DNA from: Escherichia coli
GTDB taxonomy: Bacteria; Pseudomonadota; Gammaproteobacteria; Enterobacterales; Enterobacteriaceae
Length of the DNA stretch: 64,000 nt
NCBI RefSeq assembly: GCF_003334255.1
Contig: NZ_QOWU01000010.1
Reading direction: 5' to 3' (one strand)
Positions 7,140 through 57,234 of the stretch are shown here, one piece after another (position 1 is the first letter of the stretch; each line of letters starts with the position of its first letter). Below the pieces are notes generated by a model. That model searched no databases. It saw only the letters and a program-made list of their open reading frames with translations, and had not been told where the DNA came from. Both the position numbers and the translations under genes were made by a program.

Positions 7140-9932
<2,793 letters not shown>

Positions 9933-38314: not shown

Positions 38315-39910
<1,596 letters not shown>

Positions 39911-42240: not shown

Positions 42241-42367
42241 TTTTATCATTTAGTGTTTTTTGCTGTTTCATAATGTTTCAGGCTGTGCATTATGTTTTTG
42301 ATTATCAACAGATTTGTGATTTTCCTTGTTCCAGCTTGTTTCACGTTGTAGCCCTTTGTGCAACGAT

Positions 42368-42391
42368 CGGTGTAGTCACTGGTGTAGTCAC
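42368..42391. promoter_or_regulatory. tandem GGTGTAGTCAC repeat near left end (candidate integrase arm-type site)
   Basis: CGGTGTAGTCACTGGTGTAGTCAC; near-identical copy at 57001-57024 near the right end. Confidence 0.4.
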
Positions 42392-42415
42392 TTTTTCGTA
42401 AAGAGGGGGTAAAAC

Positions 42416-43645
42416 GTGAGCAGAGCAATGAACAAACTGAGCGATACCTTGCTAAGGAAACTTCATGGTAAGCCAGCGGAGAAAAACACGTTTTATAGTG
42501 ATGGCGGAAACCTGAGCGTGAAATATTTAACATCAGGGAAATTGACCTGGTATTTCACATACAGGGCCGGAACGGGAAGGGAGACACGACCCGAACGCAT
42601 TAAGCTGGGAAGTTATCCTGATCTGAGCCTGAAAGCAGCCAGGGAAAAAGCCGCACAGTGTCGCACATGGCTGGCTGAGGGGAAAAATCCACGTCATGAG
42701 ATGAATTACACCGTACAGGAAGCGTTAAAGCCCGTAACGGTTGGCGATGCGCTCACCTACTGGCTTGAGTATTACGTAAAGGAAAACCGCGTGGATTATA
42801 TCGCCCTGAAAAGGCGACTTAATAATCACGTAATACAGCAGATTGGTGCTATGCCGCTGGATAAATGCGAGCTACGGCACTGGCTGGCCTGTTTTGACCA
42901 GGTGGCAAAGCGAACGCCTGTTACTGCCGGATTCGTGCTACAGGCGTGCAAACAGGCGCTTAAGTTCTGCCGTAGGCGGCGCTATGCAATCAGCAACGTT
43001 CTGGACGATCTGAACGTGGCGGACGTTGGGAAAAAACCGGATATAAGCGAACGTGTCTTAAGTAACAAAGAACTTGGCGAATTATTGCAGGCACTGGACA
43101 AAAAAATATTTTCCCCTTACTACGTCGCGTTAATCCGCCTCCTGATTGTCTTCGGAGCCAGGACGGTAGAACTGAGGCTATCGGAGATCGGGGAGTGGGA
43201 TTTTACGGAAATGCTATGGACCGTTCCGAAGGAGCACAGCAAAACGAAGGTCGCAATATTCCGGCCCATACCGGAAGCGATCCTGCCGTTCGTCACGCAG
43301 CTGGTGGAGCAGAACAGGCACACGGGCTTATTGCTGGGGGAAGTGAAACAGGAGGCCAGCGTATCGCAGTATGGAAGATTAGCGCACAGGAGGCTTAATC
43401 ATCCTCACTGGTCACTGCATGACATCCGGCGCACCTTTACAACCATGCTGAACGATTTAGGCGTTGATCCGCATGTCGTGGAGCAGCTTACAGGTCATCA
43501 GATGCCAGGAATGCAGCGAGTTTATAATCATTCCCGTTATCTGGATGCTAAACGCAATGCGCTGGATATGTGGATGGAGCGGTTAGGGATACTGGCGGGA
43601 ACACATGAAAACGTAACCACGCTACCAGTAGCCAGAAGAAAATAA
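42416..43645 (+). CDS. int: tyrosine integrase, P4-type
   Basis: 409-aa ORF, GTG start after AGAGGGGG; N-terminal arm-binding domain, C-terminal catalytic region with HDIRRT and downstream Tyr (RVYNHSRY). Confidence 0.9.
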   Translation: MSRAMNKLSDTLLRKLHGKPAEKNTFYSDGGNLSVKYLTSGKLTWYFTYRAGTGRETRPERIKLGSYPDLSLKAAREKAAQCRTWLAEGKNPRHEMNYTVQEALKPVTVGDALTYWLEYYVKENRVDYIALKRRLNNHVIQQIGAMPLDKCELRHWLACFDQVAKRTPVTAGFVLQACKQALKFCRRRRYAISNVLDDLNVADVGKKPDISERVLSNKELGELLQALDKKIFSPYYVALIRLLIVFGARTVELRLSEIGEWDFTEMLWTVPKEHSKTKVAIFRPIPEAILPFVTQLVEQNRHTGLLLGEVKQEASVSQYGRLAHRRLNHPHWSLHDIRRTFTTMLNDLGVDPHVVEQLTGHQMPGMQRVYNHSRYLDAKRNALDMWMERLGILAGTHENVTTLPVARRK

Positions 43646-43832
43646 TTTTTTTCGTGTTTTTTCAGTATGCGCATACTGGATATGCGAACAGATACAACAT
43701 GCAACAATGAGCAACAATGCGGAACAACTACGAACAAGAGACGAAAAAGTGTACGGATTTATAAGTAGCTGATTTTTAATGTGTTACTGGTTTTTTATAC
43801 ACTAGCGAATCACTCTTTAAATAGCGAGAAAA

Positions 43833-43859
43833 AAGGCATGAAACAATATTTTATGCCTT
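43833..43859. terminator. stem-loop in int-alpA intergenic region (terminator-like, orientation ambiguous)
   Basis: AAGGCAT-gaaacaatatttt-ATGCCTT; T-run on the minus-strand side (TTTTTTCTCGC), weaker T-rich tract on plus side. Confidence 0.35.
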
Positions 43860-44019
43860 TGTATTAACATGAATTTAAATGATTTTATCCTGATTATTCC
43901 TGTTTCTGTAAACCATACGACCTCAACATTTGCCAACTCTGAATCATCCTGACACAATCAGACACATCCCAACGCAATAGAACACGAAATAACTCTTTAA
44001 GAAACGAAAGGGGGCAATA

Positions 44020-44208
44020 GTGTTAAGCACTGATCGGTTTATACGTGAAAAAGAATGCGAAAAGCTAACAGGCCTTAGCCGCTCATGCCGCTACCGCCTG
44101 GAAAAGGCCGGACAATTCCCATCACGTCGTAAACTTGGCGGTCGTTCCGTTGGCTGGTCTTTATCCGAGGTTCTGGCCTGGAAGGATAGCTGCAAGGCAG
44201 TTCATTAA
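44020..44208 (+). CDS. alpA: AlpA-family phage transcriptional regulator / excision activator
   Basis: 62-aa ORF, GTG start after AAGGGGG; MLSTDRFIREKECEKLTGLSRSCRYRLEKAGQFPSRRKLGGRSVGWSLSEVLAWK matches AlpA/Vis-type HTH proteins. Confidence 0.85.
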   Translation: MLSTDRFIREKECEKLTGLSRSCRYRLEKAGQFPSRRKLGGRSVGWSLSEVLAWKDSCKAVH

Positions 44209-44351
44209 TCACGCTGGCGGCACACAGCCGCCACACATCAATCATCTGAACACAGAGCTATAACCATGAAGATTGAATATACGCCAGAACGTGGGCGGGG
44301 ATTCGTTCGCCCTGGTGAGACTGGAAAACCACAAAATTGGGGTTTTTCAGG

Positions 44352-44388
44352 CATAAAAAAAGCGGCCCCGAAATGGAGCCGCCTTTCT
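44352..44388 (-). terminator. rho-independent terminator for minus-strand island transcript
   Basis: On minus strand: AAAGGCGGCTCC-atttc-GGGGCCGCTTT followed by T7. Confidence 0.45.
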
Positions 44389-44477
44389 GAACAGATAACA
44401 CGCTGCGCCGTTTGTGTGTGTGATCCCAAACATAAGCACGGGGATGATAGCCGCTATCAGGCTGGTGGGCAATGCAA

Positions 44478-44651
44478 TCAGTCTGGTTCAGTTCGTTGCC
44501 ATACCTGCAATGAGCGCTTTTCCCTGTACTCTTTAAGGAATTGCTCAAGGGCAAAAGCACATGGCGCGAATCTTTCTGATTCATGCTCTATCTTTCTGCG
44601 CCGTCTTTTCCGTGCCGGTGATAATGTTTTGGTCAATTCTTTATCGGTCAT
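44478..44651 (-). CDS. hypothetical small basic protein (57 aa)
   Basis: MTDKELTKTLSPARKRRRRKIEHESERF...; ATG preceded by AGGA; downstream of orf101 on same strand, before the minus-strand terminator. Confidence 0.3.
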   Translation of the reverse strand: MTDKELTKTLSPARKRRRRKIEHESERFAPCAFALEQFLKEYREKRSLQVWQRTEPD

Positions 44652-44708
44652 TGTGTTGTCCTGCATAGCAATGCGCCGTAATACCTCACACCACGGCGCT
44701 GATAGTGA

Positions 44709-45014
44709 TTATTCTGATTCTTTGGCCTTGCGGCGCTGTAGTTCTTCACGAGCGATGGCGATAAGTTGCCCGAGTTCTTCCGTAGCTTTAATACCAATTT
44801 TTTCCACTTGCGCCAATGCATCGAGAGAAGAAATCAGAGGATTTTCACTGCTTCCTTCTGCCTGGCGGCGGGCGATCTCCCCGCGCATGGCGGTTACTAT
44901 GAATCCGGCGTTGCTTTCGCCGTCCAGTTTTACGGATTCCATGCCATCAAAAGCATCATGTGGGATACGAATTGAAATCTGTTTTGATTTGTCGTTGATA
45001 GTGTTTTTTGCCAT
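44709..45014 (-). CDS. hypothetical protein (101 aa), candidate island regulator
   Basis: MAKNTINDKSKQISIRIPHDAFDG...; ATG preceded by AGGAGA; reads away from paired operator-like inverted repeats. Confidence 0.55.
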   Translation of the reverse strand: MAKNTINDKSKQISIRIPHDAFDGMESVKLDGESNAGFIVTAMRGEIARRQAEGSSENPLISSLDALAQVEKIGIKATEELGQLIAIAREELQRRKAKESE

Positions 45015-45036
45015 GTGCATTCTCCTAAACAAAAGA

Positions 45037-45112
45037 TGTGATTCAGTATACACAAAAAAGAATCACAAAAAACACTTGACCTGTGATTCAGTTGAATTTA
45101 ATTTAAATCACA
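45037..45112. promoter_or_regulatory. divergent promoter region with two operator-like inverted repeats
   Basis: TGTGATTC-N15-GAATCACA (45037-45067) and TGTGATTC-N16-AATCACA (45082-45112); TTGACC -35-like hexamer at 45076-45081. Confidence 0.55.
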
Positions 45113-45201
45113 CCTCAGTAAGAGGATGTAAACGACAACGCCCCGAACTGTTTGCGGCAGTAGCGGGGCGTCTAACCAAACCGTTAACAGGAGTAACGAT
45201 T

Positions 45202-45399
45202 ATGGCTGGAACACAGCATACCCCACGTCTGGCGCACACACAAACTGCCTTTGTGTGGCGTTTTCTGGCACTAAGTGCCGGAGAATCTCAAATCATCCAC
45301 GTAACCGCCTGGACGGAACGCGAAGCGCGTAGCCGTTGCCCGTCCGGTTGTGTTGCTGTATTCGCCGCCCGTATTCGTCAGGGGGTGTGCCATGCCTGA
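45202..45399 (+). CDS. small protein (65 aa), possibly Icd/Ash-like
   Basis: MAGTQHTPRLAHTQTAFVWRFLALSAGESQ...; ATG after AGGAG (45189-45193); first gene rightward of the operator region; family assignment from memory only. Confidence 0.45.
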   Translation: MAGTQHTPRLAHTQTAFVWRFLALSAGESQIIHVTAWTEREARSRCPSGCVAVFAARIRQGVCHA

Positions 45400-45712
45400 C
45401 ATGACCAATTACCAGTACCTGATTAATCCGCATTTTAACTGTGAGCATGATATTGCTAAAAAGGTTTATTCCGCTGCGGATGGGGCTACTGACAATATAT
45501 CAATGGCTGTTTCGTCAATTGGTAGCCTGATGTGGTATGCGTCAGAAAATAAGGAATATGACGAAAAGGCCATGCGCATTGATATGGGTAATATTGGTTT
45601 GTTACTGGCAATGCTTGGACATTTTGATATTTCGTTACGGTGCACCATTGAAAATGCCACAGATGCATTAAATGCTATAAAGAAAGCGAATACTGATTCA
45701 AATCGGGGATAA
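45392..45712 (+). CDS. hypothetical protein (106 aa)
   Basis: MPDMTNYQYLINPHFNCEHDIAKKVYSAADG...; start overlaps previous stop; no family recognised. Confidence 0.5.
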   Translation: MPDMTNYQYLINPHFNCEHDIAKKVYSAADGATDNISMAVSSIGSLMWYASENKEYDEKAMRIDMGNIGLLLAMLGHFDISLRCTIENATDALNAIKKANTDSNRG

Positions 45713-45718
45713 ATAATC

Positions 45719-46018
45719 ATGAGAACGTATTTATCTGGCTTTACTGCCAGCGGTTATGCACACCCCAAAATTATCCCCGGCGCTATTTATCTGGATAAGA
45801 ACGGTAACAGAGTAACGGTAAAAGAACTGATGTTTGACCGTGTGTATTTTATTCGTGATGGCTATTCATTTCATAGTTCGCTGAACGTGGAGATCTTTAT
45901 TAGCAGATTCCGGCGGGAAATCCCGCTTTCCAGAAATAACCATGTGTCATGTATGGATGTTGATAAAAAACTACAGGAACTGAAAAACATGATTGCCGCG
46001 TGGAGAGAGCAGAAATGA
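45719..46018 (+). CDS. hypothetical protein (99 aa)
   Basis: MRTYLSGFTASGYAHPKIIPGAIYLDKNGNRVTVKELMFDRVYFIRDGYSF...; stop overlaps primase start (ATGA). Confidence 0.5.
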   Translation: MRTYLSGFTASGYAHPKIIPGAIYLDKNGNRVTVKELMFDRVYFIRDGYSFHSSLNVEIFISRFRREIPLSRNNHVSCMDVDKKLQELKNMIAAWREQK

Positions 46019-47832
46019 AAAAAGCGCCAAATTTAAAACACCAGCCGCGTGACAAAATGACGGAAGTCATCATTTTTGCGGGTAGTGATGCGTGGGCACA
46101 TGCGAAGCAGTGGCAGGAACAGGACGGGCGACTGGCTGGCGATAACGTGCCACCTGTCTGGCTTGGAGAGCAACAACTTGCCGAACTGGACAACCTGCAA
46201 ATCGTACCGGACGGACGCTATCGCGTGCGTCTCTACCAGGCGGGGTTATTGCGTCCGGGGCTTGTTAATACCATCGGGCAGAAACTGGCAGCGGCAGGTG
46301 TCAGGGATGCTGATTATTACCCTGAAGGAATGCACAGCCAGAAACGGGAGAACTGGCGCGAATATCTGGAACGTGAGCGGGGAGAGCTGGCGGAAAAGAA
46401 AAAGGTAGTTGAACTGCCTGTAAAGAAAAAAGAGCGGGTAAAAGACGATAACGCTTCATCACTGGCGCTTAACCAGATGGGAGCAAGTCAACGCGGCGAA
46501 GTTCTCCTGGCACATTATGGCGGTGAACTGGCGATTCATGCTGACTCTGACACTGTTCACTATTACAACGGCGTTGTATGGGAGCCAGTACAGGATAAAG
46601 AATTACAGCGAGCTATGGCGCAGATTTTCATTGATGCGGAGATCAGCTATTCGCAGAACGCCATTAAATCGGCGGTCGATACCATGAAGTTAAGTTTGCC
46701 TGTAATGGGGAATACAGCCCGTAACCTGATTGGATTCAGTAACGGTGTTTTTGATACCCGGACAGGCGATTTTCGGGAGCATAACAAAAACGACTGGTTG
46801 TTAATTGCCAGTGAATTACCTTTCAGCCCACCAGCAGAGGGGGAAACGCTGGCAACACATGCGCCGAATTTCTGGAAGTGGTTACGCCGTTCGGTGGCTG
46901 AGAATGACCGCAAGGCGGATCGCGTACTGGCTGCATTATTCATGGTGCTGGCGAACCGGTACGACTGGCAGTTATTCATTGAGGTAACAGGTCCAGGGGG
47001 AAGTGGTAAAAGCGTGATGGCGGAGATTTGCACCATGCTGGCGGGTAAGGCCAACACGGTATCGGCAAGCATGAAGGCGCTGGAAGATGCCAGGGAACGC
47101 GCGTTAGTGGTTGGCTTTTCGCTGATTATCATGCCGGATATGACCCGTTACGCTGGTGATGGCGCAGGAATTAAGGCCATTACAGGCGGTGACAAGGTGG
47201 CAATCGACCCGAAGCATAAAGCCCCCTACTCAACACGCATTCAGGCGGTAGTGTTGGCGGTGAACAATAACGCCATGTCATTCAGTGACCGCAGCGGGGG
47301 GATTTCACGTCGTCGGGTGATATTCAATTTTTCGGAGGTTGTACCGGAAAACGAACGCGACCCCATGCTGGCAGAAAAAATAGAAGGAGAGCTGGCGGTT
47401 GTGATTCGCCACCTGCTTACTCGTTTTTCTGACCAGGACGCAGCTAAACGCCTGCTGTATGAGCAGCAGAAATCAGAAGAAGCTCTGGTGATAAAACGCG
47501 AGGGCGATTCGCTGGTGGACTTCTGCGGCTATCTCATGTCGTCGGTAATGTGTGATGGTCTGTTAGTGGGTAATGCCGAAATTATTCCGTTCAGTCCGCG
47601 CAGGTATCTTTATCACGCCTATCTGGCATATATGAGGGCACACGGATTCGGTAAACCTGTAACACTGACGCGCTTCGGTAAAGATATGCCGGGGGCAATG
47701 GCGGAATATGGCAGGGAGTATATGAAACGGAAAACGAAGCACGGTTTGCGTTCAAACGTGACACTGACGGAGGAATCAGAAGACTGGATGCCATCATGTG
47801 TATCGGTCACTAATGACGATAGCAAAAATTAA
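46015..47832 (+). CDS. P4 alpha-like replication protein (primase/NTPase, P-loop)
   Basis: 605-aa ORF with Walker A GPGGSGKS and Walker B-like region; followed immediately by TGTTCACC iteron cluster. Confidence 0.8.
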   Translation: MKKAPNLKHQPRDKMTEVIIFAGSDAWAHAKQWQEQDGRLAGDNVPPVWLGEQQLAELDNLQIVPDGRYRVRLYQAGLLRPGLVNTIGQKLAAAGVRDADYYPEGMHSQKRENWREYLERERGELAEKKKVVELPVKKKERVKDDNASSLALNQMGASQRGEVLLAHYGGELAIHADSDTVHYYNGVVWEPVQDKELQRAMAQIFIDAEISYSQNAIKSAVDTMKLSLPVMGNTARNLIGFSNGVFDTRTGDFREHNKNDWLLIASELPFSPPAEGETLATHAPNFWKWLRRSVAENDRKADRVLAALFMVLANRYDWQLFIEVTGPGGSGKSVMAEICTMLAGKANTVSASMKALEDARERALVVGFSLIIMPDMTRYAGDGAGIKAITGGDKVAIDPKHKAPYSTRIQAVVLAVNNNAMSFSDRSGGISRRRVIFNFSEVVPENERDPMLAEKIEGELAVVIRHLLTRFSDQDAAKRLLYEQQKSEEALVIKREGDSLVDFCGYLMSSVMCDGLLVGNAEIIPFSPRRYLYHAYLAYMRAHGFGKPVTLTRFGKDMPGAMAEYGREYMKRKTKHGLRSNVTLTEESEDWMPSCVSVTNDDSKN

Positions 47833-47846
47833 ACTTATGGAATAAC

Positions 47847-48076
47847 TGTTCACCACTGTTCACCCTGTCATAAATATCTTTTGTATCAGTATGTTATAGG
47901 GTGAACAGTTATTTATGAACTGTTCACCAAACTATTCACTGTTCACCTTTTTGATTGTTTATTGAGCTTCAAGGGTGAACAGTGGTGAATAGTTGGTGAA
48001 TAGTTTTTGTGAAACTGTTCACCCCTTAACATTATGAATTAAAAGATAAAATATCAAAAGGTGAACAGGTGAAGGG
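47847..48076. repeat. iteron cluster (TGTTCACC / GGTGAACA), candidate origin of replication
   Basis: At least 8 exact 8-mers in both orientations (47847, 47857, 47899, 47921, 47940, 47974, 48016, 48060) plus degenerate GGTGAATA copies in an AT-rich 230-bp non-coding stretch. Confidence 0.8.
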
Positions 48077-48119
48077 TTAAAACGCAAAAATTTTAATTTA
48101 CTGCTGTGAGATAAAGCCT

Positions 48120-48365
48120 ATGACAGCGAAGCACACAAAAAAATCACAATCGCACGCCCTTGATTTGACGGAACACTGGTTAAGGGTGTCGATAAAAATC
48201 ATCGACCGCAACGCCGGGGAAGGATATGCGAAAGCACATCCCGAACTGATTAGCTCATTCATGACAACGGCAGCTGCAAACTTTGCCACGCTGACAGAAC
48301 GGGAGATTGCCGAAGCGGAACAGGTGACAACCATCAACGTTAAAACCGGAGAGCAGACAGCATGA
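48120..48365 (+). CDS. hypothetical protein (81 aa)
   Basis: MTAKHTKKSQSHALDLTEHWLRVSIKIIDRNAG...; stop overlaps start of the SSB-like gene. Confidence 0.45.
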   Translation: MTAKHTKKSQSHALDLTEHWLRVSIKIIDRNAGEGYAKAHPELISSFMTTAAANFATLTEREIAEAEQVTTINVKTGEQTA

Positions 48366-48772
48366 CAGCACAGATAGCAGCTTACGGGCGGCTGGTGGAC
48401 GACCCGCAGGTAAAACAGACCAGTAAGGGCACACCGATGACGCTGGCGCGTATGGCGGTATCGTTGCCATGTAGTCAGGCGCAGGATGGGCAGGCGACGT
48501 TATGGCTATCGGTCATCGCATTTGGTAAGCAGGCCGACTTCCTGGCTAAACATCAAAAAGGCGACGTTGCCAGCGTATCCGGCACGATGCAGGTCAGCCA
48601 GTGGACCGGACAGAACGGGGAAACGCGGCAGGGTTATCAGGTTATTGCAGACAGCGTAATCAGTGCCCGTGCGGCACGTCCTGGCGGGAACAGACGCAAA
48701 ACCACAGGCACACAGGGTAATCAGCCACCAGCGGGAGGCGATGACCCTTACGGTGACGGTATTCCGTTCTGA
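48362..48772 (+). CDS. single-stranded DNA-binding protein-like (OB fold with acidic C-terminal tip)
   Basis: 136-aa ORF with Gly/Gln-rich linker and C-terminal DDPYGDGIPF resembling the SSB DDDIPF tail. Confidence 0.7.
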   Translation: MTAQIAAYGRLVDDPQVKQTSKGTPMTLARMAVSLPCSQAQDGQATLWLSVIAFGKQADFLAKHQKGDVASVSGTMQVSQWTGQNGETRQGYQVIADSVISARAARPGGNRRKTTGTQGNQPPAGGDDPYGDGIPF

Positions 48773-48782
48773 GGGGGTGGCG

Positions 48783-49055
48783 ATGGTACATGACCGCATA
48801 GCGGAAGAACTCGAGGCGAAAGGCTTTTACCGGAGGGCGGCGGCGCGATGGGGTGAAGTCATGCTGCTGGTGGAGACAGACAAGGAACGGCATCAGGTTA
48901 CGATGCGACGGCTGGAATGTTCCAGGAAGGCACAGAAGCCACCGGAGCCGCCGGATAACTTCGGAGACCTGAGAAAGGCAGTAGATCGCACTTATGCTGA
49001 AATGGGTATAGATGGTGTAAGCGATGAAATATGGCGTAATTACCCAGACAGCTAA
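48783..49055 (+). CDS. PerC-family transcriptional regulator-like protein
   Basis: 90-aa ORF MVHDRIAEELEAKGFYRRAAARWGEVMLLVETDKERHQVTMRRLEC...; the AExLExKGxxRRAAxRWxEVM pattern is typical of PerC/Pch proteins; ATG after GAGGGGG. Confidence 0.55.
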   Translation: MVHDRIAEELEAKGFYRRAAARWGEVMLLVETDKERHQVTMRRLECSRKAQKPPEPPDNFGDLRKAVDRTYAEMGIDGVSDEIWRNYPDS

Positions 49056-49060
49056 TCAAC

Positions 49061-49084
49061 AGCCGGAGAAATCCGGCTTTTTTT
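49061..49084 (+). terminator. rho-independent terminator
   Basis: AGCCGGAG-aa-ATCCGGCT hairpin followed by T7. Confidence 0.65.
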
Positions 49085-49179
49085 GCACCAGTTGAAACGG
49101 TATGGCGCATTACCGGGTTTTCGTCACGGTCAGGCATAGTTACTATCTGAAACAAACAGACACAACAGAGGAAAAAACA

Positions 49180-49404
49180 ATGCCGATGAAATTTGATGAG
49201 ATATTAAAACAGCGTGATAAATACCATGCTGACAACATGGAGACGATGAGCATCAATGATTACCGCGCATTCCTGGAGACGGGCGCACTGATTGAAAAGG
49301 ATCAGCATGGTTTTGTGAGATGTGCTCTGTCCGGTGAAATGCTGGCGGTAAATCCTGAACAGATAGATGCATTGATAGAATTTCTGAAAGGGATCAGGGA
49401 CTGA
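49180..49404 (+). CDS. hypothetical protein (74 aa)
   Basis: MPMKFDEILKQRDKYHADNMETMSINDYRAFLETG...; ATG after AGGAAAAAA; followed by a terminator. Confidence 0.45.
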   Translation: MPMKFDEILKQRDKYHADNMETMSINDYRAFLETGALIEKDQHGFVRCALSGEMLAVNPEQIDALIEFLKGIRD

Positions 49405-49414
49405 GCACGCATAC

Positions 49415-49436
49415 AGCCGGAGCAATCCGGCTTTTT
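49415..49436 (+). terminator. rho-independent terminator (near-duplicate of 49061-49084)
   Basis: AGCCGGAG-caa-TCCGGCT hairpin followed by T5. Confidence 0.65.
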
Positions 49437-49696
49437 GTCATTTTTTGTAAATTATTTGTTCGTGGTTGTTCCACGTTGTTCACTGACAGGATCGGCATAT
49501 TTTACCCGAACTGAATCATGAGTATTCTCGCCCGTGGTGCCAGGACGCTGGGGCCACTTTCCCGCCTGTTAATGTGCTCGCCAATATTCATTACCAGGCG
49601 GGAAAACGATCGGTGCGATTGCTGATTTCCTTATGAAAAACGGTTGAGTTTTTGCCGCGTCCTGGAGTTCCTTACTTAACCCCAGGACTTTTTTTT

Positions 49697-50854
49697 ATGC
49701 CGAGAATAATCGAATTACGCCAGCAGAAAACCGCCATTAAAAATCAGATGCGCGACATGCTGGAGAACGCGGAAAAAGAAAACCGCAGCCTTAACGATGC
49801 AGAGGGCGCAAAATTTGACGAATTACGCGCTAAAGCTGAATCCCTCGATAAAGACATTTCCCGCCTTGAAGCCATTGCAGACGAAGAGCGCAGCAAGCCA
49901 GGTAAAAGCAGCCAGACCACTGACCCGGCAGAACTCCGCAACTACATCCTGACAGGTGAAACCCGCGCATTAAGTACAGGCGTTCCCGCTGATGGTGGTT
50001 ATACCGTTATCCCCGAACTGAACACCGAAATCATGCGAATGCTGACGGATGAATCCACCATGCGCCGCATCTGTACCGTGAAGAAAATCAGCAGCAACGA
50101 GTTTAAGCAGCTTGTTTCCGCTGGCGGTGCGACCGTTAACCACGGTGAAGAGGGTAAGACACGCGAACAGACCAGCACCCCGCAGATTAACGAGGTGAGC
50201 ATTAAGCTGTATCCGGTCTATGCGTACCCGCGCACCACACAGGAAATCGTGGATTTTTCCGATGTGGACATCCTTTCATGGCTGACGGGTGAGATTGGCG
50301 ACACCTTCACGGAAACCGAAGAAAGCGATCTGGTTGTGGGCGACGGTGACAAAAAAGCAAAAGGTTTTTTATCCGTACCCCGTGCAGAGAAGAACGACAA
50401 AGAGCGTGATTTTGGTACGTTGCAGGTAATTAAACCTTCCGAATCTCTGGCGTGGACATCTGCGGACCCGCTGATCGACCTGAAATTTGCATTACGTAAA
50501 AAATACCGCAAAAACGCGGTCTGGGTGGTTAACTCCACGACGGCGGCAAAACTTCAGAAGGTGAAGAACGCGAACGGTGATTACATCTGGCGCGACCGTT
50601 TACAGGCGGGTGATCCTGATACGTTGCTGGGCCTTCCGGTCGAATATCTGGAGTTTATGCCTGATAACGTTATTGCCCTGGGTGACTTCAAACGCGGTTA
50701 CTACATTGTTGATCACGAAACAGGTGTTCGCACCAGACCGGACAACCTCACAGAGCCGGGCTTCATCAAAATTTTCACGCAGAAATATTTAGGCGGTGGC
50801 GTGGTGGATTCGAACGCGATCAAGATTCTGGAACTGCCACAGGACGACGATTAA
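49697..50854 (+). CDS. major capsid protein, HK97 fold, with N-terminal coiled-coil (delta/scaffold-like) region
   Basis: 385 aa from ATG 49697 (MPRIIELRQQKTAIKNQMRDMLENAEKENRSLNDAEGAKFDELRAK...); capsid-family core follows. Confidence 0.85.
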   Translation: MPRIIELRQQKTAIKNQMRDMLENAEKENRSLNDAEGAKFDELRAKAESLDKDISRLEAIADEERSKPGKSSQTTDPAELRNYILTGETRALSTGVPADGGYTVIPELNTEIMRMLTDESTMRRICTVKKISSNEFKQLVSAGGATVNHGEEGKTREQTSTPQINEVSIKLYPVYAYPRTTQEIVDFSDVDILSWLTGEIGDTFTETEESDLVVGDGDKKAKGFLSVPRAEKNDKERDFGTLQVIKPSESLAWTSADPLIDLKFALRKKYRKNAVWVVNSTTAAKLQKVKNANGDYIWRDRLQAGDPDTLLGLPVEYLEFMPDNVIALGDFKRGYYIVDHETGVRTRPDNLTEPGFIKIFTQKYLGGGVVDSNAIKILELPQDDD

Positions 50855-50864
50855 CAGCATACAG

Positions 50865-50893
50865 AAGGGGCTTAAAAGCCCCTTTAGTGTTTT
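50865..50893 (+). terminator. stem-loop after capsid gene (attenuator/terminator)
   Basis: AAGGGGCTT-aaa-AGCCCCTT followed by TAGTGTTTT. Confidence 0.5.
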
Positions 50894-51466
50894 ATGGGTG
50901 AAAAAATTATGAAGAGTATGGAAATCCGGTCATCGGAAATCACCACCAGCGCCAGCAACACGCTTACAGGCTACGTTGTTCGCTGGGATAAGCTTTCAGA
51001 GCTGCTATGGGGGGAGTTTTACGAAAAATTCCAGCGGGGAGCGTTTACTGAATGGCTTGCGGCGGGTAATGACGTTCGCGGCCTGTATGAGCATGACCAC
51101 AGCATGTTGCTGGGGCGTACCCGTTCCGGCACGCTGAAACTGGAAGAGGACGAAACAGGGTTACGCTTTGAACTGACCCCACCGGATACCAGTACAGGGC
51201 GCGACGTTATCGAACTGGTTAAGCGTGGGGACATCTCGGGGATGAGCTTTGGCTTTCGCTCCCGTAAGGATGTATGGGATACCACAACAGATCCATGCGT
51301 GCGCACCGTGCTGGTGGCGGAACTGTACGAAATTACCGTTACATCGGTACCGGCTTACCCCGATTCCGGCGTGGAGCTGGCCCGCCGTTCCCTGTATGAG
51401 CAGCACCCCGAAAAAATGCCGCGTGCGGATAATCGCCGCTGGTGGGTGGATTTAGCGGGGGTGTGA
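50894..51466 (+). CDS. prohead maturation protease, HK97 family
   Basis: 190-aa ORF (true start may be ATG 50909); GAFTEWLAAGNDVRGLYEHDHSMLLGRTRSGTLKLEEDETGLRFELTPPDTSTGRD...GDISGMSFGF matches HK97-type prohead protease. Confidence 0.8.
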   Translation: MGEKIMKSMEIRSSEITTSASNTLTGYVVRWDKLSELLWGEFYEKFQRGAFTEWLAAGNDVRGLYEHDHSMLLGRTRSGTLKLEEDETGLRFELTPPDTSTGRDVIELVKRGDISGMSFGFRSRKDVWDTTTDPCVRTVLVAELYEITVTSVPAYPDSGVELARRSLYEQHPEKMPRADNRRWWVDLAGV

Positions 51467-51467
51467 T

Positions 51468-52679
51468 ATGTGGCTTTTCAGAAGAAAAAAAGAGCAGCGC
51501 AGCATGACGCTTGATGAATTTATGGCGCTGGCTGGCACATCGAACACGGGGGCGGGTGAGTACGTATCATCGGGGACAGCGGAATCACTGCCCGCCGTCA
51601 TGAACGCCGTGACGGTCATCTCTGAGGCGGTGGCTACCATGCCGTGTTACCTGTACCTGGTACGCAATGAGAAGGGGAAGGAGGCCCGCGAGTGGCTTGA
51701 TTCTCATCCGGTCGATCACATCCTCAACGAGCGCCCGAACGCGTGGCAGACTCCCTACCAGTTTAAGCGAATGATGATCCGCCACTGCCTGTTAAACGGT
51801 AATGCTTATGCGGTGATTCAGTGGGGGCGTGATGGTTTTCCGGTGGCTTTACATCCTTACCCGCCGCAGTCGGTGAACGTGGAGCAGACAGGCGAACACA
51901 ACTGGCGCTACTGCATCACTGACGCCTACACCGGAAACACCCGCAACTATTTACCGTGGGAGGTTCTCCACCTTCGTTACTCCACGGATGACGGTTTTAT
52001 GGGGCGCTCACCTGTAACCATCTGCCGCGAATCGCTGGGGCTTGGGCTGGCCCAACAACGCCACGGCGCGAGCGTGATGCGTGATGGCATGATGGCGGCA
52101 GGGGTTATCACGTCAGGCGAATGGCTGGACGGCGTGAAGGGCAAACAGGCATTAGCCGCACTGGAACGCTACAAAGGGGCCAGAAACGCCGGAAAAACGC
52201 CCATCCTTGAAGGGGGTATGAGCTATCAGCAGCTGGGCATGAGTAATCAGGATGCTGAATGGCTGGCCTCCCGTCGCTTCACCATTGAAGACATCGCCCG
52301 AATGTTCAACGTCTCGCCGATTTTTCTGCAGGAATACAGCAACAGCACCTACAGCAATTTCAGCGAGGCAAGCCGCGCATTTCTCACCATGACAATGCGC
52401 CCGTGGCTGGCGAACTTTGAGCAGCAGATAAAAAACGCCCTGCTGGTGGCCTCGCCTGTACCTGGTATCCGGTATCAGGTGGAGTTTGACAGCGCGGACC
52501 TGTTACGGGCCACACCTGGCGAACGCTTTGCCACCTATGAACGCGGCATCAAATCCGGCGTTATGTGCCCGAACGAAGCCCGCGAACGTGAAGGGCTGTC
52601 CCCGCGTGATGGTGGTGATGAGTTCAGCCAGGCATGGAAACAGGAAGTAAAAATCAGCGAGGGAGAAAAACCGGAATGA
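51468..52679 (+). CDS. portal protein, HK97 family
   Basis: 403-aa ORF; N-terminal region ...MPCYLYLVRNEKGKEAREWLDSHPVDHILNERPNAWQTPYQFKRMMIRHCLLNGNAYAV typical of HK97-like portals. Confidence 0.8.
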   Translation: MWLFRRKKEQRSMTLDEFMALAGTSNTGAGEYVSSGTAESLPAVMNAVTVISEAVATMPCYLYLVRNEKGKEAREWLDSHPVDHILNERPNAWQTPYQFKRMMIRHCLLNGNAYAVIQWGRDGFPVALHPYPPQSVNVEQTGEHNWRYCITDAYTGNTRNYLPWEVLHLRYSTDDGFMGRSPVTICRESLGLGLAQQRHGASVMRDGMMAAGVITSGEWLDGVKGKQALAALERYKGARNAGKTPILEGGMSYQQLGMSNQDAEWLASRRFTIEDIARMFNVSPIFLQEYSNSTYSNFSEASRAFLTMTMRPWLANFEQQIKNALLVASPVPGIRYQVEFDSADLLRATPGERFATYERGIKSGVMCPNEAREREGLSPRDGGDEFSQAWKQEVKISEGEKPE

Positions 52680-53014
52680 ACATAGGGCGACTGCGTGACA
52701 GGGTAACGATTCAGACCCTGAAACAGACCAGGGATATAACCGGCGAAATACTCGAAACGTGGGAGGACGGTCACACACTCTGGGCAAGCGTGAACATGAT
52801 CAGCAGCAAGGAGGCCATTTCATCGGGTGCAGAGCTGGCGATTGGTACCGTAAGGATCTGGATACGGTACCGGAAGGACATCAATGCCACCAGCCGGATA
52901 AAGGTCAGTACGGGGCCGCTGGCGGGGCGTGTACTGAATATCATCGGGCAGCCGCTGCCGGATGCCGCCAGGACACGCCTTGAAATTCTTTGTCGTGAGG
53001 GCGCGGAAAAATGA
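52676..53014 (+). CDS. head-tail adaptor / head closure protein
   Basis: 112 aa from ATG 52676 overlapping portal stop (MNIGRLRDRVTIQTLKQTRD...). Confidence 0.65.
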   Translation: MNIGRLRDRVTIQTLKQTRDITGEILETWEDGHTLWASVNMISSKEAISSGAELAIGTVRIWIRYRKDINATSRIKVSTGPLAGRVLNIIGQPLPDAARTRLEILCREGAEK

Positions 53015-53307
53015 CAGAAGAACTTATCACCCTGGAAGAAGTGAAACTCCATTGCCGCATCGATGGCGACGAGGAAGACCAGTTAATCAGCGGATACATC
53101 GCCGCATCGCTTGAGGCGTGCCAGATACACATAGGCAGGCGCTTTGATGACGGGCTGGAGTTCACGCCAGCCATAAAGATTGGCTGCATGATGTTTATCG
53201 CTCACCTGTATGAAAATCGCCAGATTGTCGCGGATAACGCAAAAACACGCGTACCCATGACGATTGGTGCACTCTGGACGGCTTACCGTGATGTGGGGGT
53301 GTACTGA
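53011..53307 (+). CDS. gp6-like head-tail connector protein
   Basis: 98-aa ORF MTEELITLEEVKLHCRIDGDEEDQLISGYIAASLEACQIHIGRRF... Confidence 0.65.
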   Translation: MTEELITLEEVKLHCRIDGDEEDQLISGYIAASLEACQIHIGRRFDDGLEFTPAIKIGCMMFIAHLYENRQIVADNAKTRVPMTIGALWTAYRDVGVY

Positions 53308-53747
53308 TGCCGTGGCAACCATTAAGACGATGCACAGAACCAGGCTGTAACAGGCGCGTGAAGTCCGGCAAGTGTGAGGAGCACAGGCGGGCGGCATGGC
53401 GTGCAGAGGATGCCAGACGAGGACACCGCCGCGCGCGTGGGTACTCCAGACAGTGGGACAAATACCGCGCCATGTATCTGAGTAAAAACCCGTTATGCGT
53501 GCGATGCCTTGAGAAGGGGATATATACGCCCGCCGTGGTGGTGGATCACATTATCCCGATTAATGGCGGTGATGATGTTCTCTTCTGGCCCGAATGGAAC
53601 CATCAGCCATTGTGCCAGGCGTGCCATAACCAGAAAACGAAATGGCTTGATCCGGCAACAAAAAGCAAGCGTGCCGCAGGTGGATTTCGTGAAGAGGAAG
53701 AACGGGCCGCTAACCGCAATAACTGGATGTATGACGCTGATGAATGA
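53307..53747 (+). CDS. HNH endonuclease (packaging-associated)
   Basis: 146-aa ORF with Cys pairs (CTEPGCNRRVKSGKCEEH, CVRC) and HNH core VVDHIIPINGG...NHQPLCQACHNQKT. Confidence 0.85.
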   Translation: MPWQPLRRCTEPGCNRRVKSGKCEEHRRAAWRAEDARRGHRRARGYSRQWDKYRAMYLSKNPLCVRCLEKGIYTPAVVVDHIIPINGGDDVLFWPEWNHQPLCQACHNQKTKWLDPATKSKRAAGGFREEEERAANRNNWMYDADE

Positions 53748-53913
53748 GCGGGAACAAAACCGCCTTATCCGTGGACTTATAAGGCAGCGTGACGCATGGA
53801 AGACACAGGAAACAGGGCATAAAGATAAAGCGTCAGGACGCGCAGAACGCATCACAGCGAAGCGATTAACCGACCGTGACCGCGAGGTTATGGAATGTTT
53901 CCGCAATCGCTGA
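53740..53913 (+). CDS. possible small charged protein (57 aa), translationally coupled to HNH gene
   Basis: ATG overlaps HNH stop; MNEREQNRLIRGLIRQRDAWKTQETGHKDKASGRAERITAKRLTDRDREVMECFRNR; no RBS evidence. Confidence 0.25.
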   Translation: MNEREQNRLIRGLIRQRDAWKTQETGHKDKASGRAERITAKRLTDRDREVMECFRNR

Positions 53914-54035
53914 TGAGGCTGTATGACGGGGTGGGGGGCGTTTTCAGGACAAACCCGACCCCGCCGGGCACCGACCGCCTCCTCAAATTTTTATGCACGG
54001 GAATTTTTTGAAAAATAATCTGACGAAAAATAAGC
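53914..54035. other. candidate cos/packaging-initiation region between HNH and terS
   Basis: Non-coding stretch with G/C-rich blocks (ACGGGGTGGGGGGCG, CCCGACCCCGCCGGGCACCGACCGCC) directly upstream of terS; HNH-cos-TerS arrangement is typical of HK97-like cos packaging. Confidence 0.3.
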
Positions 54036-54392
54036 ATGGCAAGACCACCGAAAGCCCCCGCCTACCTGGATGACATCGCCGTGAAGCAGTGGCGGGAAAA
54101 ATCGCGGCAGCTTGCGGAACGGGGAGACCTGACCCCCGCCGACTGGAGCAATCTGGAACTGTATTGTGTCAACTACTCCATTTACCGGAAAGCCGTCGCA
54201 GACCTTGCGGCGCGCGGGTTCAGCATTGTTAACAGTCAGGGCGGCGAGAGCAGAAACCCCGCATTAAGCGCGAAATCAGACGCTGAAAGGGTGATGATAA
54301 AAATGGCCTCCTTGCTCGGTTTTGACCCGATAAGCCGCCGTAAAAACCCACCGGAAACAGAAGAAGAGGACGAGCTTGACCGCCTGGAATAA
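54036..54392 (+). CDS. terminase small subunit (P27-like)
   Basis: 118-aa ORF MARPPKAPAYLDDIAVKQWREKSRQLAERGDLTPADWSNLELYCVNYSIYRKA...; overlaps terL start. Confidence 0.7.
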   Translation: MARPPKAPAYLDDIAVKQWREKSRQLAERGDLTPADWSNLELYCVNYSIYRKAVADLAARGFSIVNSQGGESRNPALSAKSDAERVMIKMASLLGFDPISRRKNPPETEEEDELDRLE

Positions 54393-56037
54393 GTACGCAG
54401 AAGACGTAAAAACGGGCAAAATTCAGGCCTGTAAACGGTTAAAACAGGCCGTTAAACGGTACTTTTCGGACCTTAAAAGCCCCCTTTACACGTTCGATCG
54501 TGAGGTTGTGGATCGGTTTATTGCCTTTTCCAGGGTGTGCCCGCACGTAAAAGGGCCGATGCGTGGCAGACCCATTGAGCTGGAGCCGTGGCAGCAGTTC
54601 GCCTTTGCGTGCATCCTCGGCTTTAAGGTTAAGGCCACCGGACGGCGCAAATATACGAGCGCCTTTATCGAAGTGCCGCGCAAAAATGCTAAATCAACGA
54701 CCGCCGCGATTCTGGCTAACTGGTTTCTGATTATGGAGAACGGTCAGCAGGATATTTACACCGCAGCGGTGAGCCGTGACCAGGCGAGGATCGTATTTGA
54801 TGATGCGCGTCAGATGTGCATTTTATCCCGACCGTTACGCAGGCGGGTGAATATTCAGGCGCATAAGGTGATACACCCGAAAACCAACAGCCTGTTAAAG
54901 CCGCTGGCAGCAAAAGCGGCAACTATCGAGGGCACAAACCCCAGTCTTTCTATCGTGGACGAATACCACCTACACCCCGACAACGGCGTATATTCTGCGC
55001 TTGAACTGGGGATGGGGGCACGTCCCGAAGGGCTGTTATTTGCCATTACCACATCGGGAAGTAACGTCGTTTCAGCCTGTAAGCAGCATTATGATTATTG
55101 CTGCCAGATCCTGGACGGCGAAGAGGTTAACGAATCGCTTTTTGTGCTGATTTACGAACTGGACGACGAAAACGAGGTTGATGATCCGGAGATGTGGATA
55201 AAGGCGAACCCTAATATCGATGTTTCCGTGGATCGTGAAAAACTGGCCTCAACCATTCAGAAAGCGCGGGGTATTCCGTCGCAATGGGTGGAGATGATGA
55301 CAAAGCGATTTAATATCTGGTGTCAGGGGACTACCCCGTGGATGGGTAATGGTGCATGGGCTGAGTGTGCCGGAACGTTCACGGAGGAAGATTTACACGG
55401 TCAGGAGTGTTACGCGGGGCTGGACTTATCATCAACCAGCGATATTTCCAGCGTGTGCTATGCCTTTCCGGTCGGTAAAACCATTATGATGATTTCCCGT
55501 CATTATCTGCCGGAGTTCCAGCTACAGAACCCCGCCAATAAAAACCGCGCTGTCTATCGTCAGTGGGCTAAAGCAGGCTGGATACGCACAACGCCTGGCG
55601 ACTGCATTGATTACGACCGGATCAGAGATGACATCATGCAGGACGCGGAGAAATTTAATATCAGGCTGGTGGGCTTTGATACGTGGAACGCCACGCATCT
55701 CAGAACGCAATTACAGGGGGCAGGTTTTGAGGTGGAGCCGTTCCCGCAAACCTACCTCAGATTCAGTCCGGCGGCGAAATCGTTCGAAGTTTTTGTTAAC
55801 CGCAGGGTGATTGTGCATCGTGGCGATCCGGTGTTGTCCTGGTCGATGAGTAACGTCGTGATGCAGAGTGACGCGAACGCCAATATCAAGCCGAACAAGA
55901 AAAAATCACCGAACAAGATAGACCCGAGCGTGGCGGCGCTGATGGCGTTTGGTACATTCCAGGCAGAGCATGAGGATTTTGCTTTTGATATAAGCGACAG
56001 CCACCGCCAGAAACTGGAAGAATTTAGCGGGGTGTAA
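54376..56037 (+). CDS. terminase large subunit
   Basis: 553-aa ORF with ATPase P-loop region (VPRKNAKSTTAA) and C-terminal nuclease-type domain. Confidence 0.85.
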   Translation: MTAWNKYAEDVKTGKIQACKRLKQAVKRYFSDLKSPLYTFDREVVDRFIAFSRVCPHVKGPMRGRPIELEPWQQFAFACILGFKVKATGRRKYTSAFIEVPRKNAKSTTAAILANWFLIMENGQQDIYTAAVSRDQARIVFDDARQMCILSRPLRRRVNIQAHKVIHPKTNSLLKPLAAKAATIEGTNPSLSIVDEYHLHPDNGVYSALELGMGARPEGLLFAITTSGSNVVSACKQHYDYCCQILDGEEVNESLFVLIYELDDENEVDDPEMWIKANPNIDVSVDREKLASTIQKARGIPSQWVEMMTKRFNIWCQGTTPWMGNGAWAECAGTFTEEDLHGQECYAGLDLSSTSDISSVCYAFPVGKTIMMISRHYLPEFQLQNPANKNRAVYRQWAKAGWIRTTPGDCIDYDRIRDDIMQDAEKFNIRLVGFDTWNATHLRTQLQGAGFEVEPFPQTYLRFSPAAKSFEVFVNRRVIVHRGDPVLSWSMSNVVMQSDANANIKPNKKKSPNKIDPSVAALMAFGTFQAEHEDFAFDISDSHRQKLEEFSGV

Positions 56038-56050
56038 TGAGGTCAGCAGC

Positions 56051-56332
56051 ATGACAGAAGCCGAAATAACGGGATTAATCCGCCGCGTTGCCGGAATCAG
56101 CCAGCAGGCTGACGAACAGGCCACGCAGCCGGACAGCGTGACAGCCGAAAACTATGCGCGTGTTGTTGCTGAGGTGATGCGCCGTGATGGTATAGAACTT
56201 AATGGCGTGGATATGCGCAACATACGAACCAGAGTTCTTGAGTTGCTGGCCTACCGTCGCCGCGTGGAGATGTATCGGGAGAAGGAGAAAATAACGTACC
56301 ACTGGAAGAAGCCGGAGCGGTTGCGGCGGTAA
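56051..56332 (+). CDS. hypothetical protein (93 aa)
   Basis: MTEAEITGLIRRVAGISQQADEQATQPDSVTAENYARVVAEVMRRDGIEL...; ATG after GAGGT, 14 bp downstream of terL stop. Confidence 0.5.
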   Translation: MTEAEITGLIRRVAGISQQADEQATQPDSVTAENYARVVAEVMRRDGIELNGVDMRNIRTRVLELLAYRRRVEMYREKEKITYHWKKPERLRR

Positions 56333-56419
56333 CTGGTTGATATTCCCGACGGACCAAAAATGGGTGGCTACATCCCTCGCTTCTGAGGACTGTTAACAAG
56401 CTGCCTGAAAGACAGTCAC

Positions 56420-56890
56420 AAACTACGAAATTTTCGCAGTTTAATTAATGATCAGCTTAATCGCTAACCCGCTGATATTTTCGGAAACCTCAATTTGAGG
56501 AAGTCGGCGCGGTAACTCGCTGAACTTTAAGCAAAGTGCAAAATTGCGCTTGCTGAATAATCATTATGATTACGCAGATGATTAAGGAATGACCGAAGGC
56601 GGAAATTCGCCTGTGGTTAATGGGGGAGTTGCAGATCTGCAACTCGACCATGAAACTACGGAAACTACCCGTAGTTTGGGTAGTAAGAGTAACACCCAGA
56701 TTTTGGGTCTTACTCGTGATACCCAAATTTGGGGTATCAGTGGCAACCATAACGACTTTCGTTACGGTTGATGCTTTTACCCCATTGGGGGAAAGGTATT
56801 ACGATAATCATAACACCTACCGAACAGGTAAAGCCCACCAGCCTGATTAACGTTTAACCGGAAAAAAATTCCGGTAGGTGGGGATCCCCA
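56420..56890. other. palindrome-dense non-coding region at island right end
   Basis: Ten dyad-symmetric elements including perfect 20-bp palindrome GAGTTGCAGATCTGCAACTC (56626-56645) and three TACCC..GGGTA-type dyads about 25 bp apart; overlapping small ORFs lack RBS. Confidence 0.6.
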
Positions 56891-57000
56891 TATCGACATT
56901 AACGCCCCTCATGAATTGGTGCGCTTCCCCCTGGAAAGATGATCCGCCTGTATATTTCTTGTGTCTATTTGTTCCACGTTGTTTCATACAGTGCACCGAA

Positions 57001-57024
57001 CGGTGTAGTCACTGGTGTAGTCAT
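57001..57024. promoter_or_regulatory. tandem GGTGTAGTCA repeat near right end (candidate integrase arm-type site)
   Basis: CGGTGTAGTCACTGGTGTAGTCAT, counterpart of 42368-42391. Confidence 0.4.
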
Positions 57025-57097
57025 TTTGCGATTTTTGGCACTTTTTGCGGTGAAAATTATTTAATTAAATCAACGTGTTATGTGAAATAAGTTATAT

Positions 57098-57106
57098 ATA
57101 ACAGCA
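57098..57106. repeat. right copy of 9-bp direct repeat (att core)
   Basis: ATAACAGCA, identical to 42232-42240. Confidence 0.7.
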
Positions 57107-57234
57107 ATAAATAATGCGAGAATAAACGGCACGATGATCTCGGCGGCAAAACGGATACCGCAGAGAATAATGACCAGCATTCCCAACATAATGACGATTT
57201 TTAGGCCATTGAGCGTGATGATCGGCTTTGCCAT
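57098..57234 (-). pseudogene. tqsA: tqsA 5' fragment (codons 1-46) separated from the rest of the gene
   Basis: Minus-strand ATG at 57234 encodes [46 protein letters not shown] then runs into island DNA (YNLFHITR, stop). Confidence 0.85.

Follow-up and report, generated by a model that had tools for sequence, protein, structure and literature searches.

A probable HNH-dependent cos site and an adjoining small gene in a capsid-forming satellite island of Escherichia coli

The HNH–terS interval of the island

We analysed a 64,000-nt stretch of Escherichia coli DNA (contig NZ_QOWU01000010.1 of assembly GCF_003334255.1; hereafter, the window), which carries a capsid-forming phage-inducible chromosomal island (cf-PICI) of the EcCIEDL933 type, 14.6 kb in length (42368–57023) and inserted in tqsA. 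The subject of this report is the interval of its packaging module that lies between the gene of an HNH endonuclease and terS, the gene of the small terminase. We consider it quite probable that the 122-bp non-coding gap in this interval is the cos site of the island, of the HNH-dependent HK97/SfV type, and that the 57-codon open reading frame (ORF) preceding the gap is a real gene, most likely for a non-essential packaging accessory.

The HNH gene (53307–53747, plus strand), which is also annotated by the NCBI Prokaryotic Genome Annotation Pipeline (PGAP), codes for a homologue of HK97 gp74 (39% identity, E = 2e-19; PHROG 144, E = 8e-45). Its stop codon, TGA, occupies 53745–53747, and terS starts at 54036, leaving 288 bp between the two genes, in agreement with the ~290 bp claimed in an earlier reading of this DNA that was made from the letters alone (the sequence-only reading). 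The terS product (54036–54392, plus strand) belongs to the P27 family of small terminases, as it scores 60.1 bits against the curated TIGR01558 cutoff of 45.6 and matches PHROG 83. It is followed by terL, the gene of the large terminase (54376–56037, plus strand; annotated by PGAP), whose relatives carry the Pfam domains TerL_ATPase and TerL_nuclease. The highly charged 57-aa ORF, with its ATG overlapping the HNH stop, was also found as described: it lies at 53740–53913 on the plus strand, and its ATG, inside GATGAATGA, overlaps the HNH stop by 8 nt (ATGAATGA). We refer to it as the micro-ORF.

Two G/C-rich blocks in an otherwise AT-rich context had been proposed as nicking or binding sites of the terminase. 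Both blocks are present, ACGGGGTGGGGGGCG at 53926–53940 and CCCGACCCCGCCGGGCACC at 53954–53972, but the description of the context does not hold. The island has a GC content of 51% and the flanking coding DNA of 50–68%; the segment 53914–53981 reaches 69%, and the sole AT-rich part is 53982–54035 (28%). The G-run of the first block, GGGGNGGGGG, occurs once in the window, where 0.53 occurrences are expected, and 35 of 100 shuffled sequences contained at least one match. Therefore, composition alone is not significant, and the significance of the gap rests on its conservation.

Conservation and fixed spacing within the gap

The conservation analysis covered 93 unique relatives that had been retrieved by the first codons of terS and nothing else, which keeps the set unbiased towards the gap. 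The 122-bp gap between the micro-ORF and terS (53914–54035) consists of four parts. The upstream block (53928–53950), composed of the G-run GGGGTGGGGGG, then CG and then TTTTCAGGAC, has a mean column identity of 0.945. It is followed by a spacer of fixed length and variable sequence (53951–53971; column identity 0.725 over 53951–53968), by the C-rich 10-mer CGACCGCCTC (53972–53981; column identity 0.876), which is the predicted 10-nt 3′ cohesive end, and by the A/T-rich block CTCAAATTTTTATGCACGGGAATTTTTTGAAAAATAA (53982–54019; mean column identity 0.944). In the same relatives the identities were 0.777 for the HNH gene, 0.775 for the micro-ORF and 0.764 for the third codon positions of terS. 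The G-run and A/T-rich blocks are more conserved than the neighbouring genes, and therefore they are constrained as DNA. The A/T-rich block is also common to the Pasteurella element Pmp8 (z score 13) and to ST64B (z = 7.4).

The G-run and CTCAAATTTTT are 44 nt apart in 182 of 188 sequences, although what stands between them varies. Such a fixed spacing is expected if a protein complex measures the distance from a recognition element to the cut site. From these data, the first G/C-rich block is probably a recognition element, being conserved and placed at a fixed distance from the predicted cut, rather than the nick site itself. The second block falls largely within the variable spacer, and no more than 1 nt of it reaches into the predicted cohesive end. 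The sequence-only reading had chosen the correct interval, but it had flagged neither the cohesive end nor the conserved A/T-rich block downstream of it.

As a separate observation, the sequence CACCGACCGCCTCC around the cohesive end (53969–53982) is imperfectly repeated 77 nt downstream, within the first codons of terS (54046–54059, CACCGAAAGCCCCC; 79% identity). The start of terS is very conserved as DNA, a feature that admits no fair judgement here because the loci were fetched through this very sequence.

Three lines of evidence for the predicted cohesive end

cf-PICIs have been reported to use cos packaging with HNH, TerS and TerL, and to form cohesive-end concatemers (bioRxiv 10.1101/2022.09.08.507074; 10.1101/2025.02.11.637232). 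For the island we predict that the cohesive end is CGACCGCCTC, with the top-strand nick between 53981 and 53982 and the bottom-strand nick opposite the junction of 53971 and 53972. Three independent lines, from a linear contig, from SfI and from HK97, converge on this one 10-mer.

The first line is the IMG/VR contig IMGVR_UViG_3300022664_000095, a linear, complete cf-PICI of the Klebsiella type, 15,518 nt in length (our pieces L038 and L016, whose lengths sum exactly to this value). The contig begins with CTCAAATTTTTACGCACGG (from CTCAAATTTTT) and ends with CAGGACAAAACCCAAGCCGCAAGGCAC, AAGGCAC being its last letters. In integrated relatives, exactly CACCCGCCCC stands between the sequences of the contig's end and start, which means that the homologous 10 nt are missing from the contig. 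A precise 10-nt gap in a unit-length linear assembly would arise because end-repair of 10-nt 3′ overhangs removes them. With 5′ overhangs, fill-in would instead have duplicated the segment. It is on this gap that the 3′ polarity proposed for the island is based.

The ends of two other records, both derived from virions, bracket the site and lend weaker support. The virion-derived record vB_KppS-Ant (LR881103, 16.5 kb, described as 'induced prophage') ends with TTTTCAGGAC and starts 22 nt before terS, so that 69 nt of the identical integrated copies are missing from it: 37 nt on the left side of the predicted nick and 32 nt on its right side. In PQ569648, the cf-PICI part extends from the second base of the terS ATG to the last codons of the micro-ORF.

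The second line comes from SfI, where run-off sequencing of virion DNA revealed a 10-nt gap, 5′-TGCCCGCCCC-3′ (PMC3636060). This mapped gap aligns with the island 10-mer. In the SfI record it constitutes the last 10 nt, after which comes GTCGTTTTTTTATACCCGCG; in ST64B the same 10-mer is present together with its flanks and is followed by CTCGAATTTTTATACCCGCG. The alignment of the island gap with the ST64B cos region gave z = 7.4, with none of 1000 dinucleotide shuffles as good, and it covers exactly the 10-mer segment. For the Klebsiella type, the corresponding value was z = 8.9. The homology of the island site to an experimentally mapped cos site therefore runs through ST64B, which has the exact SfI 10-mer.

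The third line is HK97, whose genome has 10-nt 3′ overhangs and whose TerL cleaves cos under stimulation by the HNH protein gp74 and TerS (PMC9410871). Here the connection is made by an intermediate, the cf-PICI relative L295, which also carries the micro-ORF. About 60 nt of L295, upstream of and including the G-run, are homologous to HK97 (z = 15.1), and when the two are aligned end to end the HK97 record stops exactly at the predicted top-strand nick. Through L295, the last 10 nt of the HK97 record align with the island 10-mer.

Comparison with other cos systems

The proposal that a cos site lies between the HNH gene and terS is well supported by comparison with other elements. As in HK97 and SfV, the site stands between these two genes within one packaging module. 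The layout of a G-run, 31–32 nt, a C-rich 10-mer, a T-rich block and terS is common to the island, the Klebsiella and Pasteurella cf-PICIs, SfI, SfV, ST64B and HK97; the G-run 31–32 nt upstream of the cohesive end was seen in SfI, ST64B and HK97 as well. These comparisons indicate that the island cos descends from the HK97/SfV type.

The phages SfI, SfV and ST64B resemble the island in that their cos has an HNH gene on one side and a P27-family terS on the other (the island TerS is 36% identical to theirs), with the G-run 31 nt upstream of the C-rich 10-mer and a T-rich block after it. SfI further shares the 10-nt gap in linear DNA with the Klebsiella-type relative. They differ in the 10-mer itself (TGCCCGCCCC versus CGACCGCCTC), in being complete phages of 37–40 kb as opposed to a 14.6-kb satellite, and in having no micro-ORF, their HNH gene ending ~75 nt before the cohesive end.

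HK97 also has the order G-run, 32 nt, cohesive end, T-rich block and terS, and its gp74 is the homologue of the island HNH protein described above. However, HK97 gp1 has no similarity to the island TerS detectable by BLASTP, and a different, unannotated ORF stands between gp74 and cos. This ORF of 67–83 aa (positions 447–698 of piece L037; HK97 39346–39597) overlaps gene 74 at its end and stands where the island has its micro-ORF; the two sequences look unrelated, as judged by eye only.

Among cf-PICIs, EcCIEDL933 and KpCIDSM30104 (bioRxiv 10.1101/2022.09.08.507074; 10.1101/2025.02.11.637232) belong to the same element family as the island and share its gene order. EcCIEDL933 adjoins phoQ, whereas the island copy is in tqsA. 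In EcCIEDL933, the HNH gene, terS and terL were each needed for transfer, which was abolished in the mutants, and cohesive ends were inferred (bioRxiv 10.1101/2022.09.08.507074; 10.1101/2025.02.11.637232). The available parts of these two texts give neither a cos position nor a cohesive-end sequence, and the small gene goes unmentioned in them, unless 'hypothetical gene 1792' refers to it.

The island site has no known sequence relationship to the cos of phage lambda and is therefore outside the lambda type. Lambda cos is composed of cosQ, cosN and cosB, that is, a nick site with an upstream element and a downstream terminase-binding region beside the small-terminase gene, and packaging proceeds towards the terminase genes. 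The ends of lambda DNA are 12-nt 5′ overhangs, and its packaging depends on a Nu1-type TerS together with integration host factor (IHF), with no need for an HNH protein. The two sites may nevertheless work similarly. In terms of position, the counterpart of cosQ is the upstream block of the island, a candidate recognition element, and that of cosB is the A/T-rich block, which could be a TerS-binding or bent-DNA region.

The micro-ORF is a narrowly distributed small gene

PGAP annotates the micro-ORF in the same frame from an ATG at 53731, as a 60-aa protein (WP_000174068.1). Residues 4–60 of this form match positions 1–57 of the 57-position profile of PHROG 3173 (E = 7.5e-37), and this full-length match starts at the ATG that the earlier reading had picked (53740). 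The 57-aa protein contains 12 R, 4 K, 6 E and 4 D, 26 of its 57 residues being charged, with a net charge of about +6. In its AlphaFold2 model, a loop joins a long helix to a short C-terminal one (predicted local distance difference test score, pLDDT, 76.5).

Among the unique relatives, the micro-ORF is open in 164 of 171, with lengths of 50, 57 or 58 aa that all differ in frame, and the 8-nt overlap with the HNH stop is present in 193 of 194 sequences. About two-thirds of the sequences have a GAGG motif upstream of the start. The ratio of nonsynonymous to synonymous substitution rates (dN/dS, Nei–Gojobori) was 0.35 in frame versus 1.36 and 1.29 in the other two frames; for comparison, it was 0.04 for terS and 0.20 for the HNH gene.

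A profile search of 1.84 billion representative proteins returned only 24 hits, nearly all of 32–89 aa, most of which end in RDRE(L/V)x(E/D)(C/A)(F/M)RNR. Outside this pattern were an unrelated repeat protein of 279 aa (P0042) and a few copies that are truncated or frameshifted. In three of the most distant members the order is protease, portal, connector, HNH, the ORF, terS and terL, the same as in the island. In the distant member L293, the ORF does not overlap the HNH stop and is preceded by a ribosome-binding site of its own, AAGGAG. In the phage collection, the micro-ORF was found only in cf-PICI-like records, and not in SfI, SfV, ST64B or HK97. The option that the micro-ORF is spurious, left standing by the sequence-only reading, is contradicted by the frame-specific purifying selection and the conserved gene order. 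We conclude that the micro-ORF is a real gene for a narrowly distributed small basic protein, tightly linked to the HNH gene and cos.

For cf-PICIs, transfer was reported to require every gene of the packaging module apart from 'hypothetical gene 1792', and even the mutant of this gene was severely impaired (bioRxiv 10.1101/2022.09.08.507074; 10.1101/2025.02.11.637232). The RefSeq locus tag of the micro-ORF is out of series (RS26570, between RS10455 and RS10460), which suggests that older annotations did not have it and therefore, tentatively, that gene 1792 is more likely the 93-aa ORF after terL.

A proposed model for packaging and the points to be weighed

Taken together, the following model may be proposed. 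The TerS–TerL terminase of the island, aided by the HNH protein, would recognise concatemeric island DNA at the gap, and staggered nicks flanking the C-rich 10-mer (53972–53981) would generate 10-nt 3′ cohesive ends. The terS/terL side would become the left end, probably the first to enter the capsid, and the HNH/micro-ORF side the right end. The likely elements of protein recognition are the G-run block, at a constant 31 nt ahead of the 10-mer, and the A/T-rich block directly downstream. The 57-aa protein, probably translated by coupling to HNH termination, would most likely act as a non-essential packaging accessory, either DNA-binding or as a cofactor of HNH or the terminase. The conservation, the homology to mapped cos sites, the gap of 10 nt in the linear contig of a relative and the coding selection on the micro-ORF are observed; the nick positions in the island itself, the 3′ polarity, the roles of the two flanking blocks and the function of the small protein are inferred.

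Several observations weigh against this model. On the side of the cos site, the 10-nt gap is exact in one metagenomic contig only, which is of the Klebsiella type. The sole E. coli-type contig end near the site (L261, from an isolate assembly) corresponds to 53972 and so misses the prediction by 1 nt, and its other end is exactly on a gene start, so that it is ambiguous; this was the one further case given by a second IMG/VR scan for terminal contigs. A scan of 81 metagenomic loci yielded no contig starting at the left cos end motif. The direct alignment of the island with SfI is not significant alone, and a direct alignment of the island and HK97 cos junctions was rejected as not significant, since 408 of 1000 shuffles were as good.

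On the side of the micro-ORF, no Shine–Dalgarno motif precedes the window's copy, and for this copy coupling to HNH termination is therefore plausible. No homologue of known function was found: the protein matched nothing in Pfam or NCBIfam, and its AlphaFold2 model had no PDB match in Foldseek; a word search of 5.8 billion proteins returned close E. coli relatives only. The gene is deleted in about six lineages that keep all cos elements, and a few copies are frameshifted; the deletions indicate that it is accessory. Finally, the same cos variants occur with both of its subfamilies, A and B, and there is no co-variation with cos beyond phylogeny, and therefore nothing indicates that the protein reads the variable parts of cos.

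Alternative explanations

The role of the small protein admits more than one reading. Tentatively, the 50–58-aa protein could be a satellite-specific packaging factor whose invariant C-terminal motif, RDRE-x-x-E-C-F-R-N-R, binds cos DNA or the HNH–terminase complex. If true, it would help to separate packaging of the island from that of HK97-like helpers having the same cos architecture, and it would explain why the gene is present in cf-PICI modules and absent from the related true phages in the collection. The protein might also act outside the mechanics of packaging, as a late-gene regulator or an anti-helper factor that, for example, blocks the helper terminase. This is rather unlikely. 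A basic, helical protein that is dispensable in some lineages, does not co-vary with cos variants and is absent from the related true phages SfI and SfV (where the HNH gene ends 75 nt before the cohesive end) would suit such a role. However, its gene is always placed between the HNH gene and cos/terS with the stop–start overlap, and EcCIEDL933 has been reported not to interfere with its helper phage (bioRxiv 10.1101/2022.09.08.507074; 10.1101/2025.02.11.637232).

It is improbable that the micro-ORF is non-functional, kept open by chance or by the constraint on the DNA adjoining cos. Its very small size, its lack of membership in a known family and the deleted or frameshifted copies are compatible with this explanation, as are a dN/dS that exceeds those of terS and HNH and a raw nucleotide alignment in which the three codon positions look equally variable. 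But selection is specific to the frame (0.35 as compared with ~1.3), the length differences are in frame, and synonymous changes accompany the conservation of the ATG and of the C-terminal motif. In addition, the hits of the profile hidden Markov model, apart from the exceptions above, are small proteins alike in size and motif. Their gene order is the same, and one of them has a ribosome-binding site of its own.

For the gap, we also considered that the conserved blocks serve transcriptional control of terS–terL, in the form of a late promoter, activator site, terminator or attenuator, and are not a cleavage site. The blocks are directly upstream of terS, and the gap contains an imperfect 10-bp inverted repeat, I5 (CGGGGTGGGG / CCCGACCCCG). 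However, scans of the gap found no sigma-70-like promoter on the plus strand and no terminator; the predicted RNA fold is no more stable than those of shuffled sequences (z = 0.09) and has no Rfam match. Contig ends that fall at the gap, and its homology to mapped cos sites, also point to a cleavage site, making control as the only function very unlikely. A dual role of the gap, in cos cleavage and in transcriptional control, is possible. Two narrower candidates were rejected: the hairpin formed by the inverted repeat, which is lost in relatives and whose fold is no better than those of shuffles, and an intrinsic terminator or structured RNA element, as no terminator, Rfam match or conserved stem-loop occurs in the gap.

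Headful packaging, with the blocks as a pac recognition site without fixed ends, finds some parallel in pac phages, whose TerS recognition sites are also in or near terS, but it is hardly credible given an HNH gene adjoining terS, which is characteristic of HK97-type cos systems, the concatemers that cf-PICI DNA forms through cohesive ends, the precise 10-nt gap in a unit-length linear contig, and the homologous 10-mer in the relatives SfI and SfV, which are cos phages.

The preferred reading, an HNH-dependent cos site with an accessory gene beside it, places the island in a cos type already known from HK97 and SfI, and it is largely what a specialist would expect of a cf-PICI. What it adds is a precise prediction of the cohesive end, an architecture of fixed spacing, and a small gene flagged in the packaging module. 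Satellites of the cf-PICI kind are widespread; they assemble capsids of their own and package no DNA but theirs, and this exclusivity depends on where and how the DNA is cut. A prediction of cos at the level of single bases (the 10-nt cohesive end, the G-run and the A/T-rich block) offers a target for mutagenesis and in vitro cleavage, and it allows packaged cf-PICI genomes to be recognised in virome data. The micro-ORF may account for some of the specificity of the satellite, or it may turn out to be the 'hypothetical gene' in which a mutation lowered transfer.

Boundaries, gene content and distribution of the island

The island is bounded by an exact 23-bp direct repeat, CGGTGTAGTCACTGGTGTAGTCA, which forms the left attachment (att) site in tqsA (42368–42390) and the right att site (57001–57023). 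tqsA, the gene of an autoinducer-2 (AI-2) transporter, is split into two pseudogene pieces on the minus strand (41501–42406 and 57091–57234). The same pieces flank the island in NZ_CP060083 (E. coli G1/2), which is 100% identical to the window here. The PGAP order in that genome is integrase, regulator, primase, single-stranded DNA-binding protein (SSB), major capsid protein, HK97-family protease and portal, followed by head closure, connector, HNH, the 60-aa hypothetical protein, the P27-family small terminase, the large terminase and a 93-aa hypothetical protein. The annotation contains no tail or lysis genes. In these properties the island is a cf-PICI: its length is within 10–18 kb, it has an integrase and a replication module, its capsid, protease, portal and connector genes are followed by hnh–terS–terL, and it is without tail and lysis genes. 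Its gene set and order are those described for EcCIEDL933 (bioRxiv 10.1101/2022.09.08.507074; 10.1101/2025.02.11.637232).

The HNH-to-terS stretch was found in 515 of 5,426 complete E. coli genomes at 83–100% identity. These include O157:H7 strains, in which the element adjoins phoQ and the micro-ORF and TerS proteins are identical to those of the island. Since the insertion is in tqsA here and on the phoQ side there, the family uses more than one integration site.

After terL, the window has only the 93-aa ORF (56051–56332, PHROG 1561). At this position, some Klebsiella-type cf-PICIs (L013, 2036–4333; L296, from 4825 onwards) have a large gene with a tape-measure-like annotation or a match to Pfam PhageMin_Tail; a tail-like gene is odd for elements said to be without tail genes. 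Within the island, PGAP reports a 116-bp frameshifted 'trigger factor' pseudogene at 49024–49139 (7725–7840 of piece L001), which coincides in part with the end of a PerC-family regulator gene; it is likely to be an artefact of the annotation.

Several GenBank records listed as phages are actually cf-PICIs, namely vB_KppS-Ant (L013, LR881103.1, 16.5 kb) and Pasteurella Pmp7 and Pmp8; OR544139.1 (L226) is among the records concerned. The 106.5-kb 'complete genome' of Klebsiella phage P12620-1 (L014/L297, PQ569648.1) looks chimeric, with a large phage joined to a cf-PICI. Another metagenome contig of cf-PICI size (L146; ERZ1023299 NODE-94, 15,632 nt, with a very high coverage of 454x) has the cos motif in its interior and is probably a replicating or circularised island from a gut sample.

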